A stretch of 64,000 nt of DNA from an uncultured Methanosarcinaceae archaeon (GTDB lineage: Archaea; Halobacteriota; Methanosarcinia; Methanosarcinales; Methanosarcinaceae), in the NCBI GenBank assembly GCA_963833425.1, contig CAWHXP010000003.1, forward strand, positions 320,001 through 384,000. The letters are read 5' to 3'. The notes beneath the pieces were generated by a model. That model worked only from the letters and a program-made list of their open reading frames with translations. It had not been told where the DNA came from and did no database searches. How positions within the stretch are numbered: position 1 is the stretch's first letter; the number at the start of each line of letters is the position of its first letter. The position numbers and the translations under genes are program-made. This document shows, in pieces, positions 12,686-47,199 of this stretch.

Positions 12686-13818
12686 GAGGATTTCGATAAA
12701 CTTCGGATTTTATTTCTTAGCAGGAATTTCTCAGATCTTCCCCTCAATTTCTCTATTTAATTCCTCTTTTTGGCTTTATTTATTCTCAATTCTTTGATTT
12801 TAAAGATAGCTTCCGCTATCTTCAATATACTTTTTTTATTTTCAATGTCCTCAATTGATGGGGATTATAACAAAAAGCCGTACACAACATTTTTAGATTT
12901 ACTCTTTTAACAGTAGTAACAAAAAATCTTCCTGCTTTGGAAATTTCTTTTGTTACTGAATAAACTCTTTCCCCTTGGACTCTTTTTGAGCTAATTCTCT
13001 TATTTCTTAATATATCCCTTATTCCCAGAGTATGTCTTTTGACTGCTCTTTTCATTGTTGCATTATACCCTTTCGTTTTTGCTCCAAAGTATCCTCTGTC
13101 CTTATAAACCACTTCATTTTCCTCTGTCAAATCTACATACGAATCATGTACTGACGCAGTTGTTGTTTGAATCTTCTGATCAGCTCACAATCTCTGTCTA
13201 TTATATTATGAAGCTTATATCCAAAGTGAGACTTACCTCCCTTCTTTGTCCATGTTCCTTCTCTGCTTCTTCTTGTTTTTGCCTCATCTCTCTGCTTTTG
13301 CATGTCCTGGATCTGAATGGATAAAAGTAGCATCCTGAATCATTCCCTGCTTTATCTGTAAACCCAGAGCAGCAAGTTGGCTTTGCAACTTTCCCCATAT
13401 TTTCTTTGAAATTCTCGATAATTCTTTCCCTAAATAGCCATACAGTAGTACTGTCAGGTACGTATTCCGGAAATCCAAGGAATTTCCTAAAAGAAATTCG
13501 ATCTATACACTGTTTCTCAAGTTCAAAATCAGAGAGACCATGCCATTGTTGTAAAACAAGCATTTTGAACATCACAATGACATCAGTTTCAGGTCTCCCT
13601 CTTGAAACGGTTTTGTTAATAGACATAGACTCAAGAATAATACGAAACTTTTTCCAATCAATTCAGGAAGCAATTTCAGCAAGCTTATCTCCAACAGATT
13701 TAAGACGTTTATACTCTTCTTTAAGAGCAAAATCAGTAAGAGTTTTCATGAATATAGATAAATATTGACAAATTTAAAGTCAACAATGCTCAAGAGCATG
13801 GAGTTTATCGAAATTCTC
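12686..13818 (-). mobile_element. IS5-family element copy 1 (frameshifted transposase)
   Basis: TIRs GAGGATTTCGATAAAC / GTTTATCGAAATTCTC; fragments GRP..MFKMLVLQQW..LSD, IQDATFI, FGYKLH, DRGY. Confidence 0.93.
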
Positions 13819-28035: not shown

Positions 28036-29170
28036 GAGGATTTCGATAAACTTCGGATTTTATTTCTTAGCAGGGAGTTCTCATATCTTCCCCACAATTT
28101 CTCTATTTAATTCCTCTTTTTGGCTTTACTTTATTCTCAATTCTTTGATTTTAAAGATAGCTTCCGCTATCTTCAATATACTTTTTTTATTTTCAATGTC
28201 CTTAATTGATAGAGATTATAACAAAAAGCCGTACACAACATTTTTAGATTTACTCTTTTAACAGTAGTAACAAAAACTCTTCCTGCTTTGAAAATTTCTT
28301 TCGTTACTGAATAAACTCTTTCCCCTTGGAATCTTTTTGAGCTAATTCTCTTATTTCCTAATATATCCTTTATTCCCAACGTATGTCCTTTGACCGCTCT
28401 TTTCATTGTTACATTATACCCTTTCGTTTTTGCTCCAAAGTATCCTCTGTCCTTATAAACCACTTCGTTTTCCTCTGTCAAATCTACATACGAATCATGT
28501 ACTGACGCAGTTGTTGTTTTGAATCTTCTGATCAGCTCATAATCTCTGTCTATTATATTATGAAGCTTGTATCCAAAATGAGACTTACCTCTCTTTTTTG
28601 TCCATGTTCCATCTCTGATTCTTCTTGTTTTTGCCTCATCTCTCTGCTTTTGCATGTCCTGGATCTGAATGGATAAAAGTAGCATCCTGAATAATTCCCT
28701 GCTTTATCTGTAAACCCAGAGCATAAAGTTGGCTTTGCAACTTCCCCCATATTTTCTTTGAAATTCTCGATAATTCTCTCCCTAAATAGCCATACAGTAG
28801 TACTGTCAGGCATGTATTCCGGAAATTCAAGGAATTTCCTAAAAGAAATTCGATCTATACACTGTTTCTCAAGTTCAAAATCATAGAGACCATGCCATTG
28901 TTGTAAAACAAGCATTTTGAATATCACAATGACATCAGTTTCGGATCTCCCTCCTGAAACGGTTTTGTTGATATACATAGACTCAAGAATAATACGAAAC
29001 GCTTTCCAATCAATTAAGGAATAAATTTCAGCAAGCTTACCTCCAACAGATTAAAGAAGTTTATACTCTTCTTTAAGAGCAAAATCAGTAAGAATTTTCA
29101 TGAATATACATAAATATTGACAAATTTAAAGCCAACCATGCTCAAGAGCATGGAGGTTATCGAAATTCTC
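28036..29170 (-). mobile_element. IS5-family element copy 2 (frameshifted)
   Basis: near-identical to 12686-13818; both TIRs present; left flank (27996-28035) looks like half a MITE A. Confidence 0.93.
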
Positions 29171-31451: not shown

Positions 31452-32105
31452 TTAAGGTTTTTTAGAACCCTTTTTAGTTTCCTGCTTTTTTTTCTTTTTT
31501 TCTGAATGTTTACTAATTTCTTCCTTTATAGTTTCAGAAGATCCTTCAAGCCCAAAGATGTCGTAGATATTATAGGGCGTTTCTAATATTGTGATATTTT
31601 CCATCTGTGCAAGTTTTTCTGAGTTTGTAACATCTACTTCACGCATAGTCAACTCAAAAGCTCTGCCACTAGGTGCAGCAGTTTGTACAGTCCCCCTCTT
31701 CTGGTCTACAGGCAAAATAAAGATAGGTGTCTTCCCCTTTGCAGTCTGGGAAACGGTATTTGTAACAAGAGTGTCTGCAATCCCGTATACGATCTTTGCG
31801 ACGGTATTAGCGGTTGCAGGAGCTATTAGCAAGAAATCGTAGTGCCCCATCTGCAGTGGGCCTGCAATGAAAGGGGAATTAGGGCCGGCATCTACTTTGA
31901 AATTAGGGAAATCATCCTGGATTTTGTCCCACAGGTGATACCATTTCATTACAGTCTCACCCTCTTTGGAAAGGAAAACCATTGTATCAACACCTGTTTT
32001 TTCCTTGATATCCACAAGAACGTTATAAGTCTCAATCATTTGGTCTCCGGAACCTGTAATTCCCCATGCTATGCGTTTAATTTTTTTTCCTAACGGTTCT
32101 ACCAA
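31452..32105 (-). CDS. afpA: archaeoflavoprotein AfpA
   Basis: RIAWGITGSG, FLSKEGE.V.KWY, PFIAGPLQMGHY, APATANTVAKI; TTG start after ggag RBS. Confidence 0.9.
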   Translation of the reverse strand: MVEPLGKKIKRIAWGITGSGDQMIETYNVLVDIKEKTGVDTMVFLSKEGETVMKWYHLWDKIQDDFPNFKVDAGPNSPFIAGPLQMGHYDFLLIAPATANTVAKIVYGIADTLVTNTVSQTAKGKTPIFILPVDQKRGTVQTAAPSGRAFELTMREVDVTNSEKLAQMENITILETPYNIYDIFGLEGSSETIKEEISKHSEKKKKKQETKKGSKKP

Positions 32106-32189
32106 AATAACACTCTCCTGAAAAAGTTTCAATCTAAACTTTGGATGGATTTATTATCCTGATTAATTTGATTTTTAATTTTATTTCTG

Positions 32190-33130: not shown

Positions 33131-33217
33131 GGGGATTTCGATAGACCCAATTTTGTCATATGCTTATAAGTGGTACATAAAATAACTCATGAGAATCAGA
33201 AATTTATCGAAATCCTC
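33131..33217 (+). mobile_element. MITE family A copy
   Basis: ggggatttcgatagaccc...aactcatgagaatcagaaatttatcgaaatcctc. Confidence 0.85.
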
Positions 33218-33430: not shown

Positions 33431-33637
33431 ATGCCTTGTGGATACTGTGGGGAGAGGATAGAGTGGCTAGCATTCAAGTGTCATCAGTGCGGGATGTCTC
33501 TTTGCGTAAATTGCCGCTTACCAGAGAATCACGAATGTACGCCAGTTACTCGATGTTTAGGAACATTTGTATATAAAACAGTGGAGAAACCCAAAAAAAG
33601 GGAAAAAGATGACGCACATGCGAGCATAGATATTTGA
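33431..33637 (+). CDS. AN1-type zinc finger protein
   Basis: CxxC..FKCxxC...CxxCRLPENHxC; ggtga RBS. Confidence 0.85.
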   Translation: MPCGYCGERIEWLAFKCHQCGMSLCVNCRLPENHECTPVTRCLGTFVYKTVEKPKKREKDDAHASIDI

Positions 33638-33886
33638 ATATTTTTAATCTTTTCGAGATCTTATAAGACAATGTATTTGCTGGGGAGAGTAACTGTGAAC
33701 CTGATTAGTGTATAAAAAGATTTTAAATCGTTCCAATAATGCTACTTTTTAGGTCCTGCTGACATATTGTATAGATGCACGTTCCGATCCTGTACCGTAC
33801 AAGGAAGCTCCACTCATATATTATCCTACAAAATATATTATATTATAACATGGAGATATAATGTTTCCTGGCACTCGTAACTGACA

Positions 33887-34200
33887 ATGAAACTCCATCA
33901 GATACACCTTTCTAGACTCGTTCGGTTATATATCATCGAGGAATATCAGCGATTGCAGATCTACATTCTGAACGGTCAAGAAGTCGACAACCTAGTCACC
34001 GAACGTATTGACTATGCTCTATTTAGGAATATCAAGAACGGTGACCGCTATTTTGAAGGAATCCATGTCAAGAAACTGCGGTATATGCTCTGTCGCGTGC
34101 AAGAACTGAAATGACATGTTGCGGTCCCCCTACGACATCCTATCTGCAAAACGAATGCCATTCTGGAATCGCTGCTTCACGACAGATACACTGGGTAAGA
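33887..34200 (+). pseudogene. degraded ORF, weakly LysR-effector-domain-like
   Basis: EEYQRLQIYILNGQEVDNLVTERIDYALFR; GC above background. Confidence 0.3.
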
Positions 34201-34312
34201 GCATATTGGAGCCGGAGCAGCAAAAAATAAAAGACCAAAATGTATCCCAGCGAGAAGGTGGAAGCGTGGCAAAAATGAGCATAAGATACCGAATTTGGAG
34301 GAGCGAGAACAG

Positions 34313-34489
34313 ATGACCGAGAAGGAGAACCAAGCAATAAGCTATCTTGCAAATAAGAGAGCATGCCTCGCTTGGCTTCGGACAGCGATTGCCTTAATCA
34401 GCTTTAGCCTCGCAGTAGCCCAGTTTCTAGAACGCAAAGTCGTACCCTGTGTACCCCTCGGAGCACGTCAACCATCATGGTGGAGATGA
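34313..34489 (+). pseudogene. truncated DUF202/YidH membrane protein
   Basis: YLANKRACLAWLRTAIALISFSLAVAQFL; similarity stops near 34430 at the edge of the frh block. Confidence 0.7.
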
Positions 34490-34492
34490 ATT

Positions 34493-35368
34493 TTAGGCGT
34501 AAGGATCCCGCAGAGCCTTGTTGAATCCGAAAGTCTTGCGCTCCTCGACCGTCTTCCGATTCTTGTCGATCTTTTCCTTCGCGAGCTTCGTGACGAGCTC
34601 GAGGCCGGGCTTGACCCCCTCAATAGGCTTCGTCTCGAACATGCCCGCAGCTACCGCCTTGGACCAGACGTCATTCCCCACCTTAGTGCGAACGAAGACC
34701 GTGGACCAGCCGTCGGGGCTCCCGACCGAGCCGGTCGAGATGTCGGCGAGGTTGGAGACGTAATCGAGACATACGTGGCAGCCAGGCTGCTCGTACTTGT
34801 GAGTCACCTTGAGTGGCAGGGCGACAACTTTACCGCGCTCTGTGTAGACCCAGTACTTGCCCTTCCCGATTTCCATCCTCTTCACGGAGCTAAGGCTCTG
34901 GCCCGCATGATCCTCAACAATGGTCTGCATGGACTTGTACGGGAAGTTCTCCATGCAGAAGAGCCCTACGGCAAGGGCGATCTTGTCCGGGACATCCCGC
35001 AAGTTGATGGGATAGAGTTGAGCCTTCCTGACCGCCTGCATCTGGCAGCAGACGCCTGTGACCCCGACCTTGTCGAGGCCGAAGGACCGAGTAGCCTCCT
35101 TGAGCCAGGAAATCTGGGGGCTGATGTTGTATTTCGTCCCTCGTGCCTTGAGGATGTCCTCGCGACTCATCGCGACAAACGGCCTGGGCTGCCAGGGCCG
35201 GTCGCCCTCGCCTGCCACAATGGCCCCGTCGATGATACCCTGCTCTAGGCCATAGACTATGAGTGTGGTGGCAATGCCGCCGTCCTGTGCCTTCTGTAGG
35301 ATCTCCTTGTCCGTGCTCCGTGCCGAGACGCATGTCGTGTATTTGCCGAGATATGGATCTGCAACCAT
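34493..35368 (-). CDS. frhB: F420-reducing hydrogenase beta subunit
   Basis: AQDGG, GTKY, GVCCQ, GLFCMENF, GCHVCLDY, DISTGSVGSPDGWSTV; gaggtga RBS. Confidence 0.96.
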   Translation of the reverse strand: MVADPYLGKYTTCVSARSTDKEILQKAQDGGIATTLIVYGLEQGIIDGAIVAGEGDRPWQPRPFVAMSREDILKARGTKYNISPQISWLKEATRSFGLDKVGVTGVCCQMQAVRKAQLYPINLRDVPDKIALAVGLFCMENFPYKSMQTIVEDHAGQSLSSVKRMEIGKGKYWVYTERGKVVALPLKVTHKYEQPGCHVCLDYVSNLADISTGSVGSPDGWSTVFVRTKVGNDVWSKAVAAGMFETKPIEGVKPGLELVTKLAKEKIDKNRKTVEERKTFGFNKALRDPYA

Positions 35369-35378
35369 TTTTCTCACC

Positions 35379-36140
35379 TCACTTGAGCGCTTCAGCGATG
35401 ATCTCGCTGATGCACTCGAATTCAGGAATCACATCGAAGTTGAAGAACGACCGTGGGCAGGCACCGTAGCAGGAACCACACTTGATGCAGAGGTCACGCT
35501 GACCCTGCGGCTTCCCGAATTCGTGTGTAATCGCCCGCACTGGGCAGGATGCAGCGCAAGTGCCGCAGCCTATGCAAAGGCCCTGGTTGATAACGTCATT
35601 CATCAGGTCGCAGAAACATGCAGTTGTGCCGCGCTTCGCAAGGTCCATGAGAGGTTTTAAGTACTTGCCCGCAAGGACCTTCTGGTCTGCGTCCCCCTGC
35701 ATGAGCAGGTATGACATGACGGTGACGTTCCTTATGAGCTCCGGGCTCGGGGGGCATCCGGGGATATAGACATCCACGTCGATGAGATTCCCGATGGGGA
35801 GGAAGGACTCGTGCTGGGGCTGATTGTGCTGCCCACCACGGCAGAACCGGGTGATGTTCCCGTAACTCGCACAGGAGCCGAGGGCCACAACGACCTTGGA
35901 CTTCTTCCGCGTCTCCTTGATCTCCTCAACCGATTCATGGTCCTGGATGCAGACCGATCCCTCGACGAGCGCCACGTCCATCTCTGGGATCTGCCGGACG
36001 TCTGCGAGCGTGAGGCAATATACGAGGTCGGCGTAGTCGTCCAGAATCTTTATGAGTCCCAAGTAATTGTCGGCCACGGACACGAGGCAGCCGGTACAGC
36101 CGCTCATGTGTACATGCCCAAGCTTGATCTTGTTTGCCAC
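35379..36140 (-). CDS. frhG: F420-reducing hydrogenase gamma (Fe-S) subunit
   Basis: SGCTGC, GSCASYG, PGCPP, two CxxCxxC ferredoxin motifs; GTG start behind aaggagg (the frame extends further upstream). Confidence 0.95.
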   Translation of the reverse strand: MANKIKLGHVHMSGCTGCLVSVADNYLGLIKILDDYADLVYCLTLADVRQIPEMDVALVEGSVCIQDHESVEEIKETRKKSKVVVALGSCASYGNITRFCRGGQHNQPQHESFLPIGNLIDVDVYIPGCPPSPELIRNVTVMSYLLMQGDADQKVLAGKYLKPLMDLAKRGTTACFCDLMNDVINQGLCIGCGTCAASCPVRAITHEFGKPQGQRDLCIKCGSCYGACPRSFFNFDVIPEFECISEIIAEALK

Positions 36141-36228
36141 TGGTTTCGCCTCCTTTATAGCTTCCACCTTATTCTCCGTCTCAACCGGAGCGGGCTTGGC
36201 TTCCCCGCCCATGGATTTCTTGATGGAG

Positions 36229-36702
36229 TTAAGCAGTCCAATAGTTCATACCGATTTCCTTCAATATCTCGGATACAGCTCCGGGAATAGCTCTCTGTAC
36301 CTCGTCTGTAATCCCGATGACCATCTCTGGGGCAGAAACGTACTTCTTTTGACATGCAAGGACCCGGATCCGGATATCATCCTTGATGCGCTGGAGCGGC
36401 TCGGTCAGATCCCAGGAATGCGCGTCCCGGTAGCTCCCCACAGGGAGCTCGTCAACGGTGAGCCATCTGAGAGCGCCGGGTTCTCCCCCGAAGTCCGCGA
36501 TGTCCACGATGATAAGAGTCTTCGTGGACTCGGAATTAAGGAGGGTAAAGATGAAATGTGGACCCCCTAGACCCGCGTCAACGACTGTAACGTTTTCGGG
36601 GAGTTCAAGGCCCTTGAGACTCTCCACTACTGCAGGTCCGAACCCATCATCCGCATATAGCGGATTGCCGCAGCCTGCCACCACAATTTCGGAGTATAGC
36701 AT
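36229..36702 (-). CDS. frhD: hydrogenase maturation endopeptidase
   Basis: IVVAGCGNPLYADDGFG, DAGLGG, IIVDIADFG, DAHS. Confidence 0.95.
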   Translation of the reverse strand: MLYSEIVVAGCGNPLYADDGFGPAVVESLKGLELPENVTVVDAGLGGPHFIFTLLNSESTKTLIIVDIADFGGEPGALRWLTVDELPVGSYRDAHSWDLTEPLQRIKDDIRIRVLACQKKYVSAPEMVIGITDEVQRAIPGAVSEILKEIGMNYWTA

Positions 36703-36713
36703 TTCCATTCCCT

Positions 36714-38081
36714 TCACTCGATGAGCTTCTGAGCGACTATCTTGTTCTCCTCGTCCACCACGATCATATGGGTTGCGCACGAGACGCATGGGTCATAGGC
36801 CCGAATGACCATTTCGGCGATCTGCCAGGGTGCTCCCGTCAGACTGCGGCTGCATGTTGGGAGGTTCCACGTTGTAGGCACAAGCATCTCGTACCACAGA
36901 ACCCGACCGTCCTTCACCCGTGCGATGTGGACATCAGTACCGCGCGGTGCCTCGTTCGCGGCCCAGCCCATGGACCCATCTCCCTGGGGGATGGTGTCCG
37001 CGAGAACCTTGCCCGAGGTATCCAGGTTGTCAAGGCACTTGAGGATGGAGTAGCAGCAGTCGGGGTACTCCAACTGCCTGGCGATGTGCTGGGCGAAGGT
37101 GCCCTTCTCAGTGAAGCTCTTGAAGGTTGCGAGCCTTGCCCTCGGGCCGACTTCTACCGGCTGGCCATCGTAGATCGGAACACCGGTACAGGCCTCCATC
37201 TGGGGGTTGGCCTTGGTGCCGACCTTCGTGGTGCCGCCGGTTGGATAGTTTGGATCCTCTAGATCAATGGTTACCTCATCCATGTACCAGTCCCATGGCC
37301 GAGTCTCCGTCCACCTGGCGAAGTCCCACATGGGATTCTCGTCCAGACTGGAGGAGCCGTACATTGGGGATGTAGCCATGACCCCCTGGTCATGGTACCC
37401 GAGCATCTTGGGAATCGGGATCTTCTTGCCCGCGACATCGGTGAATTCCCGGTTTTGCATGTTCTTGATGACCGCGAGCATGAACTCCATTTGCTCGTGG
37501 GCAAGGACGAGGCCTTCCTTCGCAAGGTCGGCCATTTTCTGCTTTGCCAGGTGGCTTACGTTGCGGTACATCCCGCCGACCCTCGGGTTAGAAGGGTGGA
37601 TAGCCTCTCCGCCTGCGATGGCTCCAATGGTCTGTCCGATCTCGCGGATGCGGATGATCCTCGCTGCAACGCTCCTGACAGACTGCTCCTTGCTGAACGG
37701 GTTGATCTTCGTCTCCGTCCCCGGTATGTAAAAGTCAGGGAGGATAAGGATGTTGTGCAGGGCGATGCTGTGGAGGCGGTTCGCAGCATGGAGAATGACC
37801 CGCAGGAGCTTTGCATCCGTTGGGATCTCGCAGCCGACAGAGGCCTCCATGGACTCGATGCCCGCCAAACAGTGGGCGATGGGACATATACCGCAGACCC
37901 GAGAAGCGATCTTCGGGACCTGGTCCATCGTCTTACCTATGGCGAGCTTCTCAATACCCCTAACCGGTGTGATGGAGAGCCAGTCTCCTCGCTCGACGAT
38001 GCCCTGATCATTCACCTTCAGGGTGAGCTTGGAGTGGCCTTCGTGTCTCGTGGTTGGAGAGATCTCTACAACTTTCGACAA
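36714..38081 (-). CDS. frhA: F420-reducing [NiFe]-hydrogenase large subunit (group 3a)
   Basis: TRHEGH, RVCGICPIAH, APRG, YDPCVSCATH plus a cleavable C-terminal tail; TTG start. Confidence 0.97.
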   Translation of the reverse strand: MSKVVEISPTTRHEGHSKLTLKVNDQGIVERGDWLSITPVRGIEKLAIGKTMDQVPKIASRVCGICPIAHCLAGIESMEASVGCEIPTDAKLLRVILHAANRLHSIALHNILILPDFYIPGTETKINPFSKEQSVRSVAARIIRIREIGQTIGAIAGGEAIHPSNPRVGGMYRNVSHLAKQKMADLAKEGLVLAHEQMEFMLAVIKNMQNREFTDVAGKKIPIPKMLGYHDQGVMATSPMYGSSSLDENPMWDFARWTETRPWDWYMDEVTIDLEDPNYPTGGTTKVGTKANPQMEACTGVPIYDGQPVEVGPRARLATFKSFTEKGTFAQHIARQLEYPDCCYSILKCLDNLDTSGKVLADTIPQGDGSMGWAANEAPRGTDVHIARVKDGRVLWYEMLVPTTWNLPTCSRSLTGAPWQIAEMVIRAYDPCVSCATHMIVVDEENKIVAQKLIE

Positions 38082-38723
38082 TAGTATCGCCTCGTTTTCG
38101 ATTCGGTGTTCTTCAGGCTGTACCGTGGTTAATGCACTCTGTGCGATTAATCTAATGATAGTTACCCGTACGTAAAGTACGTTAACCCCTTACTTTCTCC
38201 AGCGCGTTAGTTATAGTTTTCGTTTTGGAACCAACGTCAGTTTTTGGAATATACGAATGGAAAAAAATGTACAATTCGAAGCGAGAGAAGTCTTGTGACT
38301 TGGAGAACATTCCGTCTTTGGAACCCGGCCCTGAAAGATCTGATTTTTCAGCCTCCTCCGAAATAGAGCTTCGTGGGTTCTTTCCGGAGAATAAGGTGTT
38401 TCATAGCTATGACTAAAATGAAATAGATTCTAAAAGAAATAAAAATACAAAAAAATTTTGATCGATTTAAATTTGACCATGTAGATGTTAGTAGGAGCGT
38501 ATATCTTTCAAAGAGCGTAAATAAGACAAAGGTTATCCTAGAATATTAGTAATTTTTTGAGAAATCAATAGTATTAAAATTTTTACACTAATCTACATTC
38601 AAGCGAAATATATTATTTTTATCGATACTTTGAAATATTTGAAATATTAAAGTTTTCAGCTAACTTCGAACCTTAAAATTATCCATATTCCTTAGACTTA
38701 ACAGAACCGTACTAAAACTATTG

Positions 38724-38840
38724 TAGGACTTACGCGGTTGAGCTAATAAATGATAACAATAGACCTTTAGACTGTCCAAAACATAATGTTTATGATAAAC
38801 TTGCTCGTCTTGAATTTGGTCTTTAAGTGCGTCAGTCCCA
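38724..38840. mobile_element. MITE family B copy
   Basis: taggacttacgcggttgag ... aagtgcgtcagtccca. Confidence 0.7.
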
Positions 38841-40415: not shown

Positions 40416-40504
40416 GAGAGTTTCGATGAACATCTTATTTTCACGAGTCATTTACATGCCATTTACAAGCATATGACAAAATTTAGGGATTTATGTAAAT
40501 CCAC
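40416..40504 (-). mobile_element. MITE family A copy
   Basis: gagagtttcgatgaac..ttttcacgagtcattt..aagcatatgacaaaatttagggatttat. Confidence 0.8.
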
Positions 40505-40758: not shown

Positions 40759-40920
40759 ATGAAAATTAATGATAACTGTGTAGGATGCGGACAGTGTGTT
40801 TCTTTTTGCGATCAGGGAGCAATAGAGGTAAAAGGAAAAGCAAAAGCAACTTCTGCCTGTATAGGATGTGAGACATGTTTTTGGTACTGCCCGGTTAAAG
40901 CAATAGAGGTATCGATGTGA
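40759..40920 (+). CDS. 2[4Fe-4S] ferredoxin (53 aa, below the ORF-track cutoff)
   Basis: MKINDNCVGCGQCVSFC..AI..CIGCETCFWYCPVKAIEVSM; stop overlaps the GTG of the next gene. Confidence 0.9.
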   Translation: MKINDNCVGCGQCVSFCDQGAIEVKGKAKATSACIGCETCFWYCPVKAIEVSM

Positions 40921-42194
40921 AAGCAATTATTATTGGCGCCGGTTTAGGAGGGCTCTTAAGTGCCGCCAAACTTTCGCAGGTAGGATACCAAGTAGAAGTT
41001 TTTGAGAGACTTCAAATCATTGGAGGGAGATTTACAAATCTCAATTACAGAGGCTTCCAGCTTTCCAGCGGAGCTTTACACACACTTCCTCATGGACCCA
41101 CAGGTCCTCTAGCCCAATTTTTAAATGAAGTAAATGCTGATGTGCAGATTATTCGATCAGACCAGCCAACCATACGCATGCCTCTAGAAAAAAGTAATCC
41201 TAATTACAGAAAAGGCTTCAAGGACATTTATTTCAACGAATTTTTCATACCTCTTTCCAACAAAGACCGCCTGAAAATTGCTCTCCTTATCGTGAGTACA
41301 AGAAAAAACCGCCCTACAGGAAGCAATTTGAATGCATGGATCAGAAATCAATTTAAGGATGAATGGCTTTTGAGATTTGCAGACTCCTTCTGCGGCTGGT
41401 CCCTTAGCCTGAAAAGTGACAGTGTCCCCTTGGAAGAATATTTTGAAATGATTGAAAACATGTATAAATTTGGTGGCCCAGGCGTCCCGATTGGAGGCTG
41501 CAAAGGAATTATAGATGCCTTAGAATCTGTAATTGTTGCAAATGGTGGGAAGATTTATGATAAGACCGAAGTATCGAAAATTCTTATGAAAAACGGAAGA
41601 ACAGCAGGTATTATTGCTGGAGACAGAGTATATGAAGCAAATCTGATCATCAGTAATCTTGGGCATGCAGCAACTGCCTTTCTTTGTAGTGAATCTCTGC
41701 TAGATAAAACATACTCCGACTACCTCAAAATGCTTGAGATCCTAAAGCCCTCTGCTGGAATAAAAATTTGCCTTGCAGCAGATGAGCCTTTAATAGGGCA
41801 TTCCGGGATCTTGCTAACTCCATATGCAAAAAGGGTAAATGGAATTAATGAAGTTACGCATATTGACCCAAACTTGGCTCCACCTGGCAAACACCTTACA
41901 ATGACCCACCAGCAAACAGCCCCTGAGAATCTGAAAAATCTAAGTGTTGAAATCGAATTAGGTCTTGAAGATCTTAAAGAAATATTCCCAGGCAAAAAAT
42001 ATGAAGTTTTACTCATTCAATCATATCATGACGATTGGCCTGTGAATAGGGTAGCCTCAGGTATGGATCCAGGCAATGAGACCCCGATTACTGGACTTTA
42101 CGTAGTAGGAGATGGCGCAAAAGGTAAAGGAGGCATCGAAGTCGAAGGAGTGGCATTAGGAGTAGCCGCAACCATGAAGAAAATACTCTGCTAA
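40917..42194 (+). CDS. phytoene desaturase-like FAD oxidoreductase
   Basis: IIGAGLGGL..E....IGGR, SSGALH, LYVVGDG. Confidence 0.88.
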   Translation: MKAIIIGAGLGGLLSAAKLSQVGYQVEVFERLQIIGGRFTNLNYRGFQLSSGALHTLPHGPTGPLAQFLNEVNADVQIIRSDQPTIRMPLEKSNPNYRKGFKDIYFNEFFIPLSNKDRLKIALLIVSTRKNRPTGSNLNAWIRNQFKDEWLLRFADSFCGWSLSLKSDSVPLEEYFEMIENMYKFGGPGVPIGGCKGIIDALESVIVANGGKIYDKTEVSKILMKNGRTAGIIAGDRVYEANLIISNLGHAATAFLCSESLLDKTYSDYLKMLEILKPSAGIKICLAADEPLIGHSGILLTPYAKRVNGINEVTHIDPNLAPPGKHLTMTHQQTAPENLKNLSVEIELGLEDLKEIFPGKKYEVLLIQSYHDDWPVNRVASGMDPGNETPITGLYVVGDGAKGKGGIEVEGVALGVAATMKKILC

Positions 42195-42230
42195 ATTTAA
42201 GGATGAAACAAATTCAACAGGTGTTTTACC

Positions 42231-43256
42231 ATTCAAACAAAAAAATCCTACCTCGTTACCTACACAAAAAATGTTTTCATTCCTGTAACCAATATGTGCA
42301 GAAACTGCTGTGCATACTGTGGCTTCAAACGAGAACCAGGACAATCAGACGCCAGACTAATGAGACCCGAAGAAATTATTCTTATCCTAGAACGTGGGGT
42401 AAAAGCAGGGTGTACTGAGGCTCTTTTTACTTTTGGGGAGTATGCAGATGAGGTACCAGGGTACGGAAAATTGCTTAAAAAACTCGGTTATTCCTCCACG
42501 TTGGAATACTTACTCTTTCTTTGTGAAACGGCAATAAATATAGGTATTCTTCCACATACGAATGCGGGGATTATGAACCGCTCGGAACTTAAGACATTAA
42601 AACCTCTGAATGCTAGCATGGGGCTGATGCTTGAGAGTATGGCAACCCTTGATGCCCATGAAAACTGTTGTGGAAAAGTGCCAGAACGCAGGCTTCATAC
42701 AATCCGAGAAGCCGGAAAACTGCGAATTCCCTATACTACTGGCCTCCTAGTAGGGATCGGAGAAAAGCGGGAGGACAGAATTAAATCGCTAGAGGTTATT
42801 GCAGATCTTCACAGGGAATATGAGCATATCCAAGAAGTCATTATCCAGAACTTTGTCCCAAAACCAGGGACACCCATGGAAAACTTTCCAGAGCCTACAA
42901 TCGAAGAAATTATTGATACGGTGTTCCTTGCCAGGCAGATACTTCCACCTGCTATAGCAGTTCAGGTGGCTCCAAACCTCATTGATCCAAAATCCCTTAT
43001 CGAAAAAGGGGCAACGGATCTAGGAGGCATATCTCCTTTAACCATAGACTGGATCAACCCTGAAGCCAAATGGCCGGGATTAGATGACCTACAAGATAAG
43101 CTGGGGAACATTCTGCTAAGGGAACGCTTACCAATTTATCCACAGTACATAAAAAAAAGATGGTACTCAAAAAGGATAGGAAAGTTGATCGGACAACTGT
43201 CGGACACGCAAGGTTACCGAAAAGAATCCTTAACAAATAGCCTGGAGAGGAATTAA
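42231..43256 (+). CDS. cofG: FO synthase subunit CofG
   Basis: VTYTKNVFIPVTNMCRNCCAYCGF, PHTNAG, SMGLMLE, QEVIIQNF, DLGGISP; start inferred at ATT after AGGTG. Confidence 0.9.
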   Translation: MQTKKSYLVTYTKNVFIPVTNMCRNCCAYCGFKREPGQSDARLMRPEEIILILERGVKAGCTEALFTFGEYADEVPGYGKLLKKLGYSSTLEYLLFLCETAINIGILPHTNAGIMNRSELKTLKPLNASMGLMLESMATLDAHENCCGKVPERRLHTIREAGKLRIPYTTGLLVGIGEKREDRIKSLEVIADLHREYEHIQEVIIQNFVPKPGTPMENFPEPTIEEIIDTVFLARQILPPAIAVQVAPNLIDPKSLIEKGATDLGGISPLTIDWINPEAKWPGLDDLQDKLGNILLRERLPIYPQYIKKRWYSKRIGKLIGQLSDTQGYRKESLTNSLERN

Positions 43257-43259
43257 AAA

Positions 43260-44411
43260 ATGAACAACAAAATTCCAGAAGATCTCATAGAACGTGTATA
43301 TCAGGGAAAGAGCACAAAAGAAGATGCACTTCTTCTCCTTAAAGCACCTCACTTAGAACTCTTCATGTTTGCGGACGAACTTCGCTCTCATACTGTAGGA
43401 GATACAGTTACCTACGTAGTAAACAGGAACATCAATTTTGCCAGCAAATGTTTGGGAACGTGTGGATTCTGCGCTTTTAAAAACAAGAATGGATATGTCC
43501 TCACCATTGAAGAGATTATGGCAAAGGTTAGAGAAGCAAAGCAGGCTAATGCGACTGAAGTTTGTATCCAGGGAGGACTCCTTCCTGATCTAGGCATCGA
43601 CTTTTACCTCGAGATCGCAGAATCCATAAAAGCTGAATATCCAGAAATGCACATTCATTCTTTTTCACCAATGGAAGTGCACCATGCCGCCCGCATCAGT
43701 GAAATTACGGTAAAAGAAGCCCTTTCCAGACTAAATAAAAGTGGTCTCGACACTATGCCTGGGACTGCAGCAGAAATACTTTCTGAAAGGGTGCGGAAGA
43801 TTATCTGTCCCACTAAACTTGGAACAAGAGAATGGATCGAAGTGATCAAGCAAGCGCACGCTGCAGAAATTCCTACTACTGCAACAATGATGTACGGACA
43901 TATTGAAACTCCTGAGGAAAGAATAGAACATATACTGATCATCAGGGATATTCAGAAAGAAACAGGCAGGATTACAGAATTTGTTCCCCTACCATTCATG
44001 CCCTATAACAATCCATTGGGGAAGAAATTAATGGAAGAAGGCAGATATGCCACCTCAGGCCTTGAAGATTTAAAAACGTATGCTATTTCTCGAATCCTCT
44101 TAAATGGGCACGTGGATAATATCCAGGCAAGTTGGGTAAAGTTAGGGAAAAAACTTGCCCAATTTGCTCTTTGCTGCGGAGCTAATGACCTGGGTGGTAC
44201 CCTCATGGAAGAGAATATTTCAAAATCTGCAGGAGCCTCTAACGGAGAACGGATCTCAAGAGAAGAACTTGAATGGATGATACACGAAGCTGGCAGGATT
44301 CCAAAAGAGAGGACTACATTATACAGGGGAGTTCATGAACTGGCTTTGGCAAATCAAAAAAATGCCAAGTTGTCGAATCTCAGAATGAGCTCATCTATCG
44401 GGAATAAATAG
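43260..44411 (+). CDS. cofH: FO synthase subunit CofH
   Basis: VTYVVNRNINF..CxxxCxxC, MPGTAAEIL, TATMMYGH, NIQASWVKLG, GANDLGGTLMEE. Confidence 0.95.
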   Translation: MNNKIPEDLIERVYQGKSTKEDALLLLKAPHLELFMFADELRSHTVGDTVTYVVNRNINFASKCLGTCGFCAFKNKNGYVLTIEEIMAKVREAKQANATEVCIQGGLLPDLGIDFYLEIAESIKAEYPEMHIHSFSPMEVHHAARISEITVKEALSRLNKSGLDTMPGTAAEILSERVRKIICPTKLGTREWIEVIKQAHAAEIPTTATMMYGHIETPEERIEHILIIRDIQKETGRITEFVPLPFMPYNNPLGKKLMEEGRYATSGLEDLKTYAISRILLNGHVDNIQASWVKLGKKLAQFALCCGANDLGGTLMEENISKSAGASNGERISREELEWMIHEAGRIPKERTTLYRGVHELALANQKNAKLSNLRMSSSIGNK

Positions 44412-44445
44412 AAAGTCATCGACTAAAACAGGAATGAGCATAATG

Positions 44446-45400
44446 TACATGAAAAAAGAGGTGGCCATCCCTATGACGTCTTTGACAGAGCAATATAAGG
44501 AAAAGTGTACTAAAGAAAATACTCTTTTATACTGCTTTAAAAAAGTCCATTTGAGCTTTTTGAACTCGCAGATACACTGTGATATCAGGCATCTGCGATG
44601 TTGTTAGTCGTGCTTCATACAGAAACATACACATTTGATAAATGAAGGAAACTGTGAATTTTATGCTTGCAGAACAGAAAAATATTATTTATACTTATGT
44701 TGGAAGATATGCGCACAAACGTGAGTGAAGCAAGAAAAGTCGGTGTTTTGGAGATATTTATGGGAGGAGAGGATATGACATTGACATGGAATTCTATCTT
44801 AAGATGGTGAAAGCGAGTTTCAGCCCCTCACAGGTATCTCAGCTAGATTTTTTCCAAGAGGAGTAAAAAATTAATTGTCCTGAAAAAAAAATCAATACCC
44901 AGAAATGAATTGATACCATAACTTTGAGGCATAAGATTGGAATTTTCACTTTGTGATCATCATGTAAGGGCATTTAGAGACTGTAGAATAATGTCTGGGC
45001 CATGTAATTATCATTCGCGAAATCAGAAAGAGACTAAGAGGATTCAGAAATGATCCACATGTCTTCTTTTTCTAGAATAAACGAATAGATGAAAAGATTC
45101 TGGTATGGAGAAAGCTCACCAGTGCCGGACTTAAAGATTTGCACATCATAACCATTTCCAACATAATCCCTACATATATTTGAACAATATCAGGACTCAT
45201 GGGTTAAGCTCGGGAAAAATTTGCTTAGGTAGCCTTGAAGTATGGAACGAATCATAAAAATTACGCTTATGGTAGATCAGATCTCAACAACACTCTGAGG
45301 AATTCATTGCTAATGTTTATTCCTACGAGCTTAAATAGTTGATAAAAAGTGTAGGAAGAATTTCTATTTATAGAGAGACCCTTTACAGGATATCTAACAC
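44446..45400 (+). pseudogene. cofH: second cofH paralogue, pseudogene
   Basis: fragments KCTKE, FELADTL, YRNIHI, GNCEFYAC, DSWVKLGK, TLMVDQIS, RETLYR with many stops and frameshifts. Confidence 0.85.
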
Positions 45401-45522
45401 CAATTTTCAGAGAAGGAATTAACTTTCGAATCGCTGAAGAACCAGAGAAAGTACTGGGAAGTAAGAAAGATCAAAAATAAATGTTTTCCGAAGGTTAAAA
45501 GATCCCAATTTAAGGAGTCAAG

Positions 45523-46149
45523 ATGAAAGTGGTAGTACCCTATAAAAAATCCAGTGCAAAGTCCCGATTGTCCTCGGTCCTAAGCCAGGAAGAAAGAGAA
45601 GAATTTGTGGAAATCATGTTGAATCAGGTAATAGACACAGTACTAGCAGCTGGAATAGAAAATATCGATATCCTCAGTCCTTCAATATATGGCCTTGAGA
45701 ACATGAAGAATGCCAGAGTCCTCCTGGATAAAAGCGACTTGAATGAGGCTGTCAACAGGTATCTTGGACAAGTGGATGAACCAACACTGATTGTTATGGC
45801 TGATCTGCCCCTTCTTTCTCCAAGCCATATAAAAGCGATAATCTCAACAAAAGAGGATGTCTGTATAGTTCCAGGAAAGGGGGGAGGAACAAATGTCCTT
45901 TTTGTCAAAAACCCTTCATGCTACAGGGTCGAATACTACGGCTCAAGCTTTCTGGCACACTGCTCTATAGCTGCTGAAGAGAGGCAAAATATTGGAATAT
46001 ATGATTCTTTTTTAGTGAGTACGGATATAGATGAACCGGCGGATTTAGTCGAACTGCTTATACACGGAAAAGGATATGCAAAGAAATATATAAGCAAAAA
46101 GTTCAGGCTTGAGATCAGCAGAGGAAGAGTGGAATTGTCTCAAATTTGA
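45523..46149 (+). CDS. cofC: 2-phospho-L-lactate/PEP guanylyltransferase
   Basis: VVPYK..AKSRLS, MADLPLL, GKGGGTN, YYGSSF..H, DIDEPADL. Confidence 0.95.
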   Translation: MKVVVPYKKSSAKSRLSSVLSQEEREEFVEIMLNQVIDTVLAAGIENIDILSPSIYGLENMKNARVLLDKSDLNEAVNRYLGQVDEPTLIVMADLPLLSPSHIKAIISTKEDVCIVPGKGGGTNVLFVKNPSCYRVEYYGSSFLAHCSIAAEERQNIGIYDSFLVSTDIDEPADLVELLIHGKGYAKKYISKKFRLEISRGRVELSQI

Positions 46150-46255: not shown

Positions 46256-47199
46256 GAGGATTTCGATAAACTTCGGATTTTATTTCTTAGCAGGAATTTC
46301 TCATATCCTCCCCTCAATTTCTCTCTTTAATTCCTCTTTTTGGCTTTACTTATTCTCAATTCTTTGATTTTAAAGATAGCTTCCGCCATCTTCAATATAG
46401 TTTTTTTATTTTCAATGTTCTCAATTGATGGAGATTATAACAAAAAGCTGTAAAACAACATTTTTAGATTTACTCTTTTAACAGTAGTAACAATAACTTT
46501 CTCCTTTGAATACCCTTTTAGTTTCGGCATAAACTCGTTTCCATTGAGCTTTTTTGAGATGATATTCTAGTTTTTTAATACATCACACATCCAAGAGAAT
46601 ATCCATTTACTGCTCTTTTCACCGTTACACCACTGACTTAGCCACAAAGTATCCTCTGTCCCTATAAACCACTTCATTTTCCTCTGTCAAATCTACATAC
46701 GAATCATGTACTGACACAGTTGTTGTTTTGAATCTTCTGATCAGCTCATAATCTCTAGCTATTATATTATGAAGCTTATATCCAAAGTGAGACTTATCTC
46801 CCTTCTTTGTCCAGGTTCCGTCTTTGCTTCTTCTTGTTTTTGCCTCATCTCTCTGCTTTTGCATGTCCTGGATCTGAATGGATAAAAGTAGCATCCTGAA
46901 TCATTCCCTGCTTTATCTGTAAACCCAGAGCATAAAGTTGGCTTTGCAACTTTCCCTATATTTTCTTTGAAATTCTCGATAATTCTCTCCCTAAATAGCC
47001 ATACAGTAGTACTGTAAGGTACGTATTCCGGAAATCCAAGGAATTTCCTAAAAGAAATTCGATCTATACACTGTTTCTCAAGTTCAAAATCAGAGAGACC
47101 ATGCCATTGTTGTAAAACAAGCATTTTGAACATCACAATGACATCAGTTTCAGGTCTCCCTCTTGAAACGGTTTTGTTGATATACATAGACTCAAGAAT
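46256..47199 (-). mobile_element. IS5-family element copy 3 (5'-truncated, mosaic)
   Basis: one TIR at 46256; matches the other copies except a divergent patch at ~46495-46645; homology ends near 47199. Confidence 0.9.

Follow-up and report, generated by a model that had tools for sequence, protein, structure and literature searches.

An old frhADGB hydrogenase operon of probable Methanomicrobiales origin in an AT-rich Methanosarcina genome

The 64,000-nucleotide (nt) stretch analyzed here (the window) covered positions 320001-384000 of contig C3 (accession number CAWHXP010000003.1) of an uncultured Methanosarcinaceae genome (GCA_963833425.1, designated G000), and it harbored an intact operon for F420-reducing hydrogenase, frhADGB (34493-38081, minus strand, gene order A-D-G-B; positions are those of the window unless a contig is named), that was far richer in GC than its surroundings. 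Such a locus raised the question of whether the operon was foreign to its host and, if so, from which lineage and how long ago it had come. A preliminary description, made from the window alone, had proposed a recent acquisition from a high-GC methanogen; the comparisons below led to the same kind of donor and to an earlier date, and an old transfer of a working frhADGB from Methanomicrobiales to Methanosarcina, its composition still fading, was judged the probable explanation.

The G000 assembly comprised 4.07 Mb in 21 contigs (35.8% GC, completeness 80%, contamination 1.35%). It was compared with 58 other Methanosarcina genomes, 15 other genera of the family (118 genomes), and a phylum sample of 401 genomes. 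Four sets of sequences recurred in the comparisons: (i) the nearest relative G019 (frh locus L042) and two further close-relative records, L043 and L044; (ii) two other Methanosarcina genomes, G006 and G007; (iii) G257, the Methanomicrobiales genome closest in Frh, with its operon read from locus L051; and (iv) the high-GC Methanomicrobiales loci close to Methanosarcina Frh, namely, L047, L049, L051, and L068. The core genes were those for McrA, EF-1alpha, and thermosome, the frh synonymous sites were those of frhA, frhG, and frhB taken together, and all tree supports were SH-aLRT values from quick searches.

Each of the four predicted Frh proteins exceeded the curated cut-off of its own NCBIfam equivalog: FrhA matched TIGR03295 at 596.3 bits (cut-off 392.5), FrhD matched TIGR00130 at 222.1 bits (cut-off 134.95), FrhG matched TIGR03294 at 360.6 bits (cut-off 245.5) from residue 28 onward, and FrhB matched both TIGR03289 at 446.3 bits (cut-off 331.5) and NF006807 at 473.7 bits (cut-off 269). 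These scores and the open reading frames (ORFs) confirmed the initial statement that all four genes are intact. FrhA residues 1-438 aligned to residues 1-438 of the solved Frh chains 6qgt_A/6qgr_A (437-438 aa) at 889.7 bits, and the frhA ORF ran 17 residues past the end of the solved chains, a stretch that may be the C-terminal extension removed at maturation; C63, C66, C432, C435, and H438 were invariant in a 13-sequence alignment, the two cysteine pairs that bind Ni-Fe being those of the N-terminal CxxC and of the C-terminal CxxC followed by His. The true start of frhD is probably M28, 5 nt past the frhA stop, because the family match began at residue 31 of the 186-aa ORF and the orthologous ORF in G019 had 159 aa. 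Judged from these family assignments, FrhA and FrhG would oxidize H2, FrhB would hand the electrons via FAD to coenzyme F420, and FrhD would trim the FrhA C terminus. The dN/dS of frh against G019 was about 0.08-0.10, which supports purifying selection on the operon with strong protein constraint, as had been supposed, and the intactness of frh amid gene remains agrees with its putative retention by selection. Long antisense ORFs, which are usual in GC-rich DNA, overlay the operon as first described, among them 37392-38084 (+, 230 aa) and 36067-36570 (+, 167 aa).

A search for a native frh copy elsewhere, suggested in the preliminary description, recovered no second FrhA in the assembly, the other matches being FpoD and a 596-aa frame of Vht type. 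G000 encoded HypD (C6:66385-67422) and the large subunit of a Vht-like hydrogenase (C6:59791-61404); a PF00346 search of this 80%-complete assembly found no Ech-type large subunit and matched only FpoD (C9:106662-107390). The known Frh proteins fell into three groups relative to the G000 copy: (i) those of other Methanosarcina had the same gene order, with FrhA 87% identical to the proteins named FrhA of M. vacuolata and M. barkeri; (ii) those of Methanomicrobiales (Methanoregulaceae, Methanoculleus, and wetland or soil lineages known from metagenome-assembled genomes [MAGs]) resembled it in TTG start, leader motifs, and GC content at third codon positions (GC3); and (iii) those of other methanogen lineages (3zfs_A, 4omf, 4ci0_A, and 9r51_A; families f11 and f15; and two gut-type Methanosarcinaceae) belonged to the same enzyme family with the same subunit set but were 43-49% identical and about 405-424 aa long, and they rooted the FrhA tree outside Methanomicrobiales plus Methanosarcina.

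The four kilobases 34001-38000 had GC contents of 0.527, 0.583, 0.558, and 0.584, compared with 0.347 and 0.349 for the kilobases on either side and with 0.28-0.45 elsewhere in the window, so that the GC-rich island in AT-rich flanks was as originally described; within the operon, 100-nt windows ranged from 0.46 to 0.67. Across the genome, 1-kb windows (n = 8110) had a mean GC of 0.358 (sd 0.057, 99th percentile 0.527), and 140 of them, grouped in 29 regions, reached at least 0.50. The GC3 values of frhB (0.779), frhA (0.758), and frhG (0.744) ranked 3, 5, and 8 among 1065 non-overlapping G000 ORFs of at least 250 aa (median 0.359, 99th percentile 0.678), and frhD had 0.556 over its long ORF. 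There were 17 other ORFs with GC3 of at least 0.65: 16 lay in GC-rich islands with bacterial-type genes where annotated, and the remaining one, outside the islands, was unannotated (C13:208038-209192).

High GC3 might arise without any transfer if frh were a native Methanosarcina operon whose GC-rich codons had been selected for high expression; mcrA (GC3 0.53, or 0.526 to three decimals) and the EF-1alpha gene (0.455) did stand somewhat above bulk ORFs (0.355), and Frh has been described as abundant (PMC3591093). The frh genes, however, exceeded mcrA itself by 0.22-0.25, and the thermosome genes (0.365-0.44; 0.43 for the thermosome set against frh) and the Vht-like large-subunit gene (0.374) lay lower still; because native highly expressed genes did not have the same GC3, the compositional oddity of frh was genuine. 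Moreover, G3 was raised as much as C3 in frh (C3 0.425 and G3 0.335, compared with 0.486 and 0.370 in the donor type, 0.269 and 0.204 in native core genes, and 0.181 and 0.174 in bulk ORFs), whereas the native core genes of G007 raised C3 alone (0.38; G3 0.19). Current substitutions in frh ran about 8- to 34-fold towards A/T, Frh was 90-94% identical to that of G257 while the core proteins were 65-70% identical, and the 15 other genera of the family lacked this Frh (all detailed below). An origin of the composition by selection on a native operon was therefore held to be very improbable.

A compositional step of this kind might equally be an artifact, that is, an assembly chimera or a mis-binned fragment within the contig. 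At three contig ends, blocks with 64-72% GC and bacterial-type genes (see below) might represent bad joins, and a search of sequencing runs gave no source reads over the junctions: the best run held at most 24% of the sampled words of the stretch, and contigs of runs X1, X2, X3, and X5 (93-99% alike, from relatives) covered 34513-38267, none of them bridging 34493. Against an artifact, the frh block sat 354 kb into a 624-kb contig, and contigs of other runs crossed from frhA into its leader (X3, 37909-38267; X5, 38052-38263). The upstream junction recurred, together with its 440 nt of AT-rich spacer, in the separate records G019/L042, L043, and L044, and the same GC step was present in 11/11 same-genus loci, single-contig genomes included, with frhA and the DNA downstream of it at 50-63% GC against AT-rich flanks. 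Because the upstream junction was shared by three records and the step by every relative examined, a chimera was regarded as very unlikely, its probability being close to nil.

The distribution of FrhA pointed away from the family of the host. Among the 118 genomes of the other Methanosarcinaceae genera, only two had FrhA, of a different type (43-46% identity). In the phylum sample, FrhA was found in 67/67 genomes of six families (f8, f18, f20, f28, f29, and f30), all of them Methanomicrobiales (Methanoregulaceae, Methanolinea, Methanoculleus, and others), with full-length copies at 69-91% identity; two further families had FrhA at 43-49% only. Between G000 and G257, identities reached 91.2% for FrhA, 90.1% for FrhD, 93.9% for FrhG, and 92.5% for FrhB, as against 66.0% for McrA, 70.1% for EF-1alpha, and 64.9% for thermosome (69, 70, and 65% in a separate comparison), and the synonymous difference was 0.49 of saturation in frh but 1.01 in the three core genes. 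The frh genes of G257 matched the composition of their own genome, since their GC3 was 0.856 and that of its core genes 0.883.

The trees agreed with such a donor. In an 88-row FrhA tree rooted with seven outgroup rows from other families, the 28 Methanosarcina-type rows formed one clade (support 98), which joined L047, L049, L051, and L068 (100) and was nested in a ladder of Methanomicrobiales; a concatenated tree of FrhA, FrhG, and FrhB (40 rows by 1027 columns, the rows chosen from 68 loci holding all three proteins) had the same topology with supports of 98 and 100, and in it the G000 copy branched first inside Methanosarcina. The G000 copy thus took the position expected of a Methanosarcina gene in that it grouped with its congeners, but the group as a whole fell inside Methanomicrobiales.

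Synteny also spoke for Methanomicrobiales as the likely source. In L051, the 4.75 kb upstream of frhA encoded AIRS-domain, ketol-acid reductoisomerase (KARI), and GCHY-1 proteins, and this flank was common to 46/52 other non-Methanosarcina loci and to 0/27 Methanosarcina-type loci, on account of which the G257-lineage copy was placed in the ancestral Methanomicrobiales position and the Methanosarcina copies outside it. In Methanomicrobiales, accordingly, the operon matched the composition of its genome (flanks 45-65% GC) and followed the AIRS, KARI, and GCHY-1 genes, while in G000 it stood in 34% GC surroundings among unrelated neighbors. Identity contrast, synonymous sites, trees, and synteny together bore out the donor named in the preliminary description, a high-GC methanogen of the Methanomicrobiales, and an inter-class archaeal transfer of frh was well supported. 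In the proposed course of events, the ancestor of frh-bearing Methanosarcina would have received a piece of about 3.8 kb, in which some 195 nt of native promoter and leader accompanied the operon, and the donor would have been a Methanomicrobiales lineage of high GC. The closest relatives known for that donor are "Methanomicrobiales archaeon" MAGs with flanks of 60-65% GC; the transfer was presumably a single event, and inheritance since then would have been mainly vertical within the genus, with the operon kept by purifying selection.

The date of the transfer was approached through the congeners. In the family-wide search, FrhA was present at 84-94% identity in 39/58 other Methanosarcina genomes (two split or partial copies counted). 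In G019, an orthologous blastn block (34484-38522, 89.3% nt identity) lay between the same flank blocks (82.5, 87.2, and 83.6%) in the same order. The identities of G000 to G019, G006, and G007 were 94, 91, and 88% for FrhA, set beside 97, 93, and 92% for McrA, 96, 92, and 94% for EF-1alpha, and 96, 92, and 91% for thermosome; in the 30 genomes where both proteins gave full-length matches, similarity to G000 in FrhA correlated with that in McrA at a Pearson coefficient of 0.69 and a Spearman coefficient of 0.56, values that are descriptive only, the genomes being related. These data supported an operon old in the genus, which would have been inherited mainly vertically since its arrival.

An acquisition by G000 alone, as first proposed, would account for a frh GC3 of 0.76 near the 0.86 of the donor type, for a downstream junction that was unique to G000 and cut a DUF202 gene, and for a block flipped relative to that of the nearest relative. 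It was contradicted by the presence of frh in the 39 congeners and by the orthologous block of G019 between the same flanks, also found in L043 and L044 and more alike in nucleotides than the flanks at 82.5-87.2%. Furthermore, no Methanomicrobiales FrhA was closer than 91% aa to that of G000, the synonymous difference had already reached 0.49 of saturation, and neither integrase nor tRNA marked the borders; a recent arrival was therefore scarcely credible. The flip itself appeared local: 34484-38522 was inverted in place among the closest relatives, with G000 and L044 in one orientation and L042 and L043 in the other, while the flank blocks kept their order and orientation. The spacers next to the block were unalignable, and no convincing inverted repeats were found at the block ends.

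A transferred operon slowly adopting the composition of its host is a textbook phenomenon. G000 and its nearest relatives had the most GC-rich of 20 Methanosarcina copies, and by protein distance these also lay nearest the type found in Methanomicrobiales; over the 20 copies, GC3 of frhA, frhG, and frhB dropped from about 0.83 to 0.565 with rising protein distance from L051 (Spearman -0.83, a descriptive figure for related sequences). Synonymous third positions were polarized by parsimony with four different outgroup pairs, and on the G000 terminal branch the frh sites showed 63-87 GC-to-AT versus 2-8 AT-to-GC changes, an asymmetry that was about 10-fold with three of the outgroup pairs and stronger with the remaining one (range about 8- to 34-fold), although such counts use related sequences and parsimony polarization is imperfect under skewed composition. 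On the G019 branch, there were 37-54 GC-to-AT versus 0-4 AT-to-GC changes in frh, compared with 34 versus 28 in the three core genes on the G000 branch. The implied equilibrium GC3 of frh, 0.22-0.39, bracketed the bulk value of 0.355. Because substitutions ran so strongly towards A/T, nothing held the GC of frh up; it was falling, and the G000 clade had lost least. The high GC of frh would accordingly be leftover donor composition eroded by AT-biased mutation, with G000 and its close relatives holding the least eroded copies.

Several points weighed against an old, single transfer followed by mainly vertical descent, among them the unbridged junction at 34493 and the limits given above for both correlations and for the branch counts. 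Firstly, no FrhA match was found in 19/58 congeners, some of them 99% complete, and the frh neighborhoods of G006 and G007 were unrelated. Secondly, in an FrhA tree reduced to 49 rows, the four high-GC loci fell within Methanosarcina beside the G000 clade (96), so that the Methanosarcina copies formed one clade in two of three trees, and this placement was not rejected by an approximately unbiased (AU) test on the concatenated data (p 0.137, lnL difference 20.1); the sister relation and the single transfer therefore rested partly on synteny. Thirdly, the frh synonymous divergence from G000 was nearly flat (0.40, 0.43, 0.46, and 0.49 of saturation for G019, G006, G007, and G257), whereas that of the core genes rose steeply (0.29, 0.57, 0.62, and 1.01), a pattern hard to reconcile with strict vertical descent unless divergence is masked by parallel change from GC to AT.

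The tree result and the AU test would suit a two-step history, in which Methanosarcina took frh from older Methanomicrobiales (like L072-L077) and L047, L049, L051, and L068 took it back later from G000-like Methanosarcina. The frh genes of L051, L049, and L047, however, lay behind the same genes as in the 46 other non-Methanosarcina loci, so that a return would need exact in-place replacement; the larger FrhA tree and the concatenated tree kept Methanosarcina as one clade, and the frh GC3 of the four loci (0.86-0.88) equaled that of their own core genes (0.88). Such a return was deemed improbable.

The flat divergence could be explained either by faster non-equilibrium GC-to-AT change together with parallel change or by a later spread of a cassette within the genus. 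In the latter case, frh plus its own promoter and leader would be a self-contained cassette that entered after the genus had begun to diversify, spread between its lineages, and kept moving or flipping inside genomes. This would explain why frh divergence stayed at 0.40-0.49 while that of the core genes ranged from 0.29 to saturated, and it would also explain the sharp borders (at the frhB stop and upstream of the leader), the differing G006 and G007 neighborhoods, the in-place inversion, and the donor-like composition; it appears rather unlikely, and, if true, it would make a portable regulatory element of the conserved leader (about 125 nt).

The borders of the imported piece were defined by similarity to distant Methanosarcina and Methanomicrobiales loci, which stopped at the frhB stop codon on one side and about 195 nt beyond the start codon of frhA on the other. 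The noncoding segment upstream of frhA aligned with the corresponding segments of L051, L049, L047, and L068 over 145-197 nt (77-85% identity) and with the other matching Methanosarcina loci over about 95-146 nt (79-92%); with L052, L056, L060, L062, L063, and L067, the identity was 87-92% over 120-127 nt. Given the frh synonymous differences, the segment looks constrained. A TATA-like element (CTATAAC, 38210-38216) and two short palindromes resembling hairpins lay within it, and GAGG preceded the TTG start codon, itself kept in 17/17 aligned loci. The TATA region was of the Methanomicrobiales type in G000 and its nearest relatives and was replaced in L052, L056, L060, and L063. No Rfam match was obtained over 33500-38800 at E up to 1, and the consensus fold was weak (14 pairs, two with compensatory change; covariation term -0.13); the segment is best read as a putative promoter plus 5' UTR. 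L043 and L042 aligned to 38084-38522, past the far end of the segment. In run X3, a library recorded as metatranscriptomic RNA, contigs 93-99% alike covered most of frh within 34706-38267, and one of them extended from frhA 186 nt into the leader, which shows only presence in an RNA library and derives from relatives.

Earlier work places these results in context. Methanosarcina carries frhADGB while most other Methanosarcinaceae lack hydrogenases (PMC3017947 and PMC2686161), and Frh feeds electrons from H2 to F420 in Methanosarcina during growth on H2/CO2 and in hydrogen cycling (10.1101/335794 and 10.1101/334656). Work on transfer into Methanosarcina has centered on bacterial donors, with ackA-pta acquired from Clostridia (PMC4455057); like frh, this was a genus-level gain of a metabolic module altering substrate and energy options, and frh differs in that its donor would be a methanogenic archaeon of another class. 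The terms "frh" and "hydrogenase" are absent from PMC4455057, and in the literature searched, where subscription journals were thinly covered, neither a Methanomicrobiales origin nor a foreign composition was stated for the frh operon of Methanosarcina. If the transfer is true, H2-using Methanosarcina and its strictly methylotrophic relatives would be set apart partly by gene import from archaeon to archaeon. The frh copies, with GC3 from about 0.83 down to 0.565, would form a natural series for the rate at which foreign DNA ameliorates to host composition, and annotators may note that a strong GC island need not be recent, the signal here being genuine but old.

The features of the window are collected in Table 1.

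Table 1. Coordinates of the frh operon, its borders, and the mobile-element remnants in the window
Feature	Position	Strand	Description
frhA	36714-38081	-	[NiFe] large subunit of F420-reducing hydrogenase, 455 aa, TTG start
frhD	ORF 36229-36789; likely gene 36229-36708	-	maturation endopeptidase
frhG	35379-36212	-	iron-sulfur small subunit, 277 aa
frhB	34493-35377	-	FAD/F420-binding subunit, 294 aa
Putative promoter/5' leader	38082-38277	-	conserved noncoding; would have travelled with the operon
Upstream spacer	38278-38522	-	shared only with nearest Methanosarcina relatives; ends the block flipped between close relatives
Truncated DUF202 gene	34295-34489	+	PF02656 positions 3-32 of 68; outside the imported block
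IS remnants	28173-28978, 13201-13626, 46762-47187		window copies of the ~1.14-kb insertion sequence (IS)

The surroundings were only partly as first described. The span 33850..38400 originally drawn included the real frh block, but 33850-34492 lay outside it and matched no other frh locus, and 33640-34236 had no match in the genus beyond one of 24 nt. The statement that the block ends against a truncated DUF202 gene held: an N-terminal DUF202 fragment ended 4 nt short of the stop codon of frhB. G000 had paralogues at other places (72.5-75% nt identity), and homologues at 68-76% occurred in 10/58 congeners, none at the frhA places; because of this distribution, the fragment appears to be a native gene cut by local rearrangement. 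A DUF202 gene split by the island was considered and rejected, as there was no DUF202-like ORF across the block and no link to frh in other loci. Also as initially reported, no mobility determinant was seen: there was no tRNA within 15 kb of frh, a scan of 31 flanking ORFs gave no integrase, direct repeats in the flanks reached at best 34 nt at 71%, and the nearest IS remnants were 5.5 and 8.7 kb off.

The neighbors had been called pseudogenes, which applied to the DUF202 gene and the two nearest IS remnants, but many others were intact; those conserved with G019 included a flavoprotein gene (31452-32132) and the genes for ferredoxin and FAD oxidoreductase plus cofG, cofH, and cofC (40759-46149). 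The F420-biosynthesis genes among them (cofG-like and cofH-like radical SAM genes and cofC) lay 2.7-8 kb from frh at a native GC of 38-43%, and they were near frh in G019 too. A 33-nt sequence at 33149-33181 had an inverted copy, 85% complementary, 7.3 kb away at 40451-40483; it is probably a short dispersed repeat, since contigs of other runs matched those 33 nt only and were unrelated on both sides.

The view of G000 as a decaying genome was upheld by three features: ORFs of at least 150 aa covered 43% of it, a ~1.14-kb IS (DUF772 and DDE_Tnp_1 ORFs in two frames) gave 143 blastn matches genome-wide at about 94% identity, and other GC-rich islands contained genes in fragments. The IS copies were mostly 93-96% identical mutually, with 43-70 mismatches and 1-6 gaps in each 1140 nt, suggesting that the burst is old and its copies are now decaying. 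Long-read indel errors were rejected as the cause of broken genes, as the IS copies differed by substitutions and ORFs intact in G019 were intact here. Two islands of 52-55% GC without long ORFs, L008 (C7:35501-41500) and L009 (C8:145501-151500), held fragments of cobW, sulfatase, NADH:flavin oxidoreductase (old yellow enzyme), lyase, and TPP-enzyme genes and, unlike the intact frh, look like decayed imports.

The contig-end blocks of 64-72% GC were C12:1-12500, C15:184001-198816, and C3:617001-624181, which might reflect faulty joins, contamination, or imports from bacteria. Those of C12 and C15 encoded a sigma-54 activator, a type II/IV secretion ATPase with platform protein, a prepilin peptidase, an S9 peptidase, and an amidase, and a NUDIX domain was the sole recognized feature in that of C3. 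Four further GC-rich islands were internal to their contigs: the first two, C10:109747-111957 and C18:9402-12945, contained a catalase-peroxidase-type gene and an MCRA-family (oleate hydratase-like) gene in two frames plus a third fragment, and the last two, C9:53673-56738 and C2:245960-249745, contained fumarase with malic enzyme and a 1261-aa protein with a multicopper-oxidase domain.

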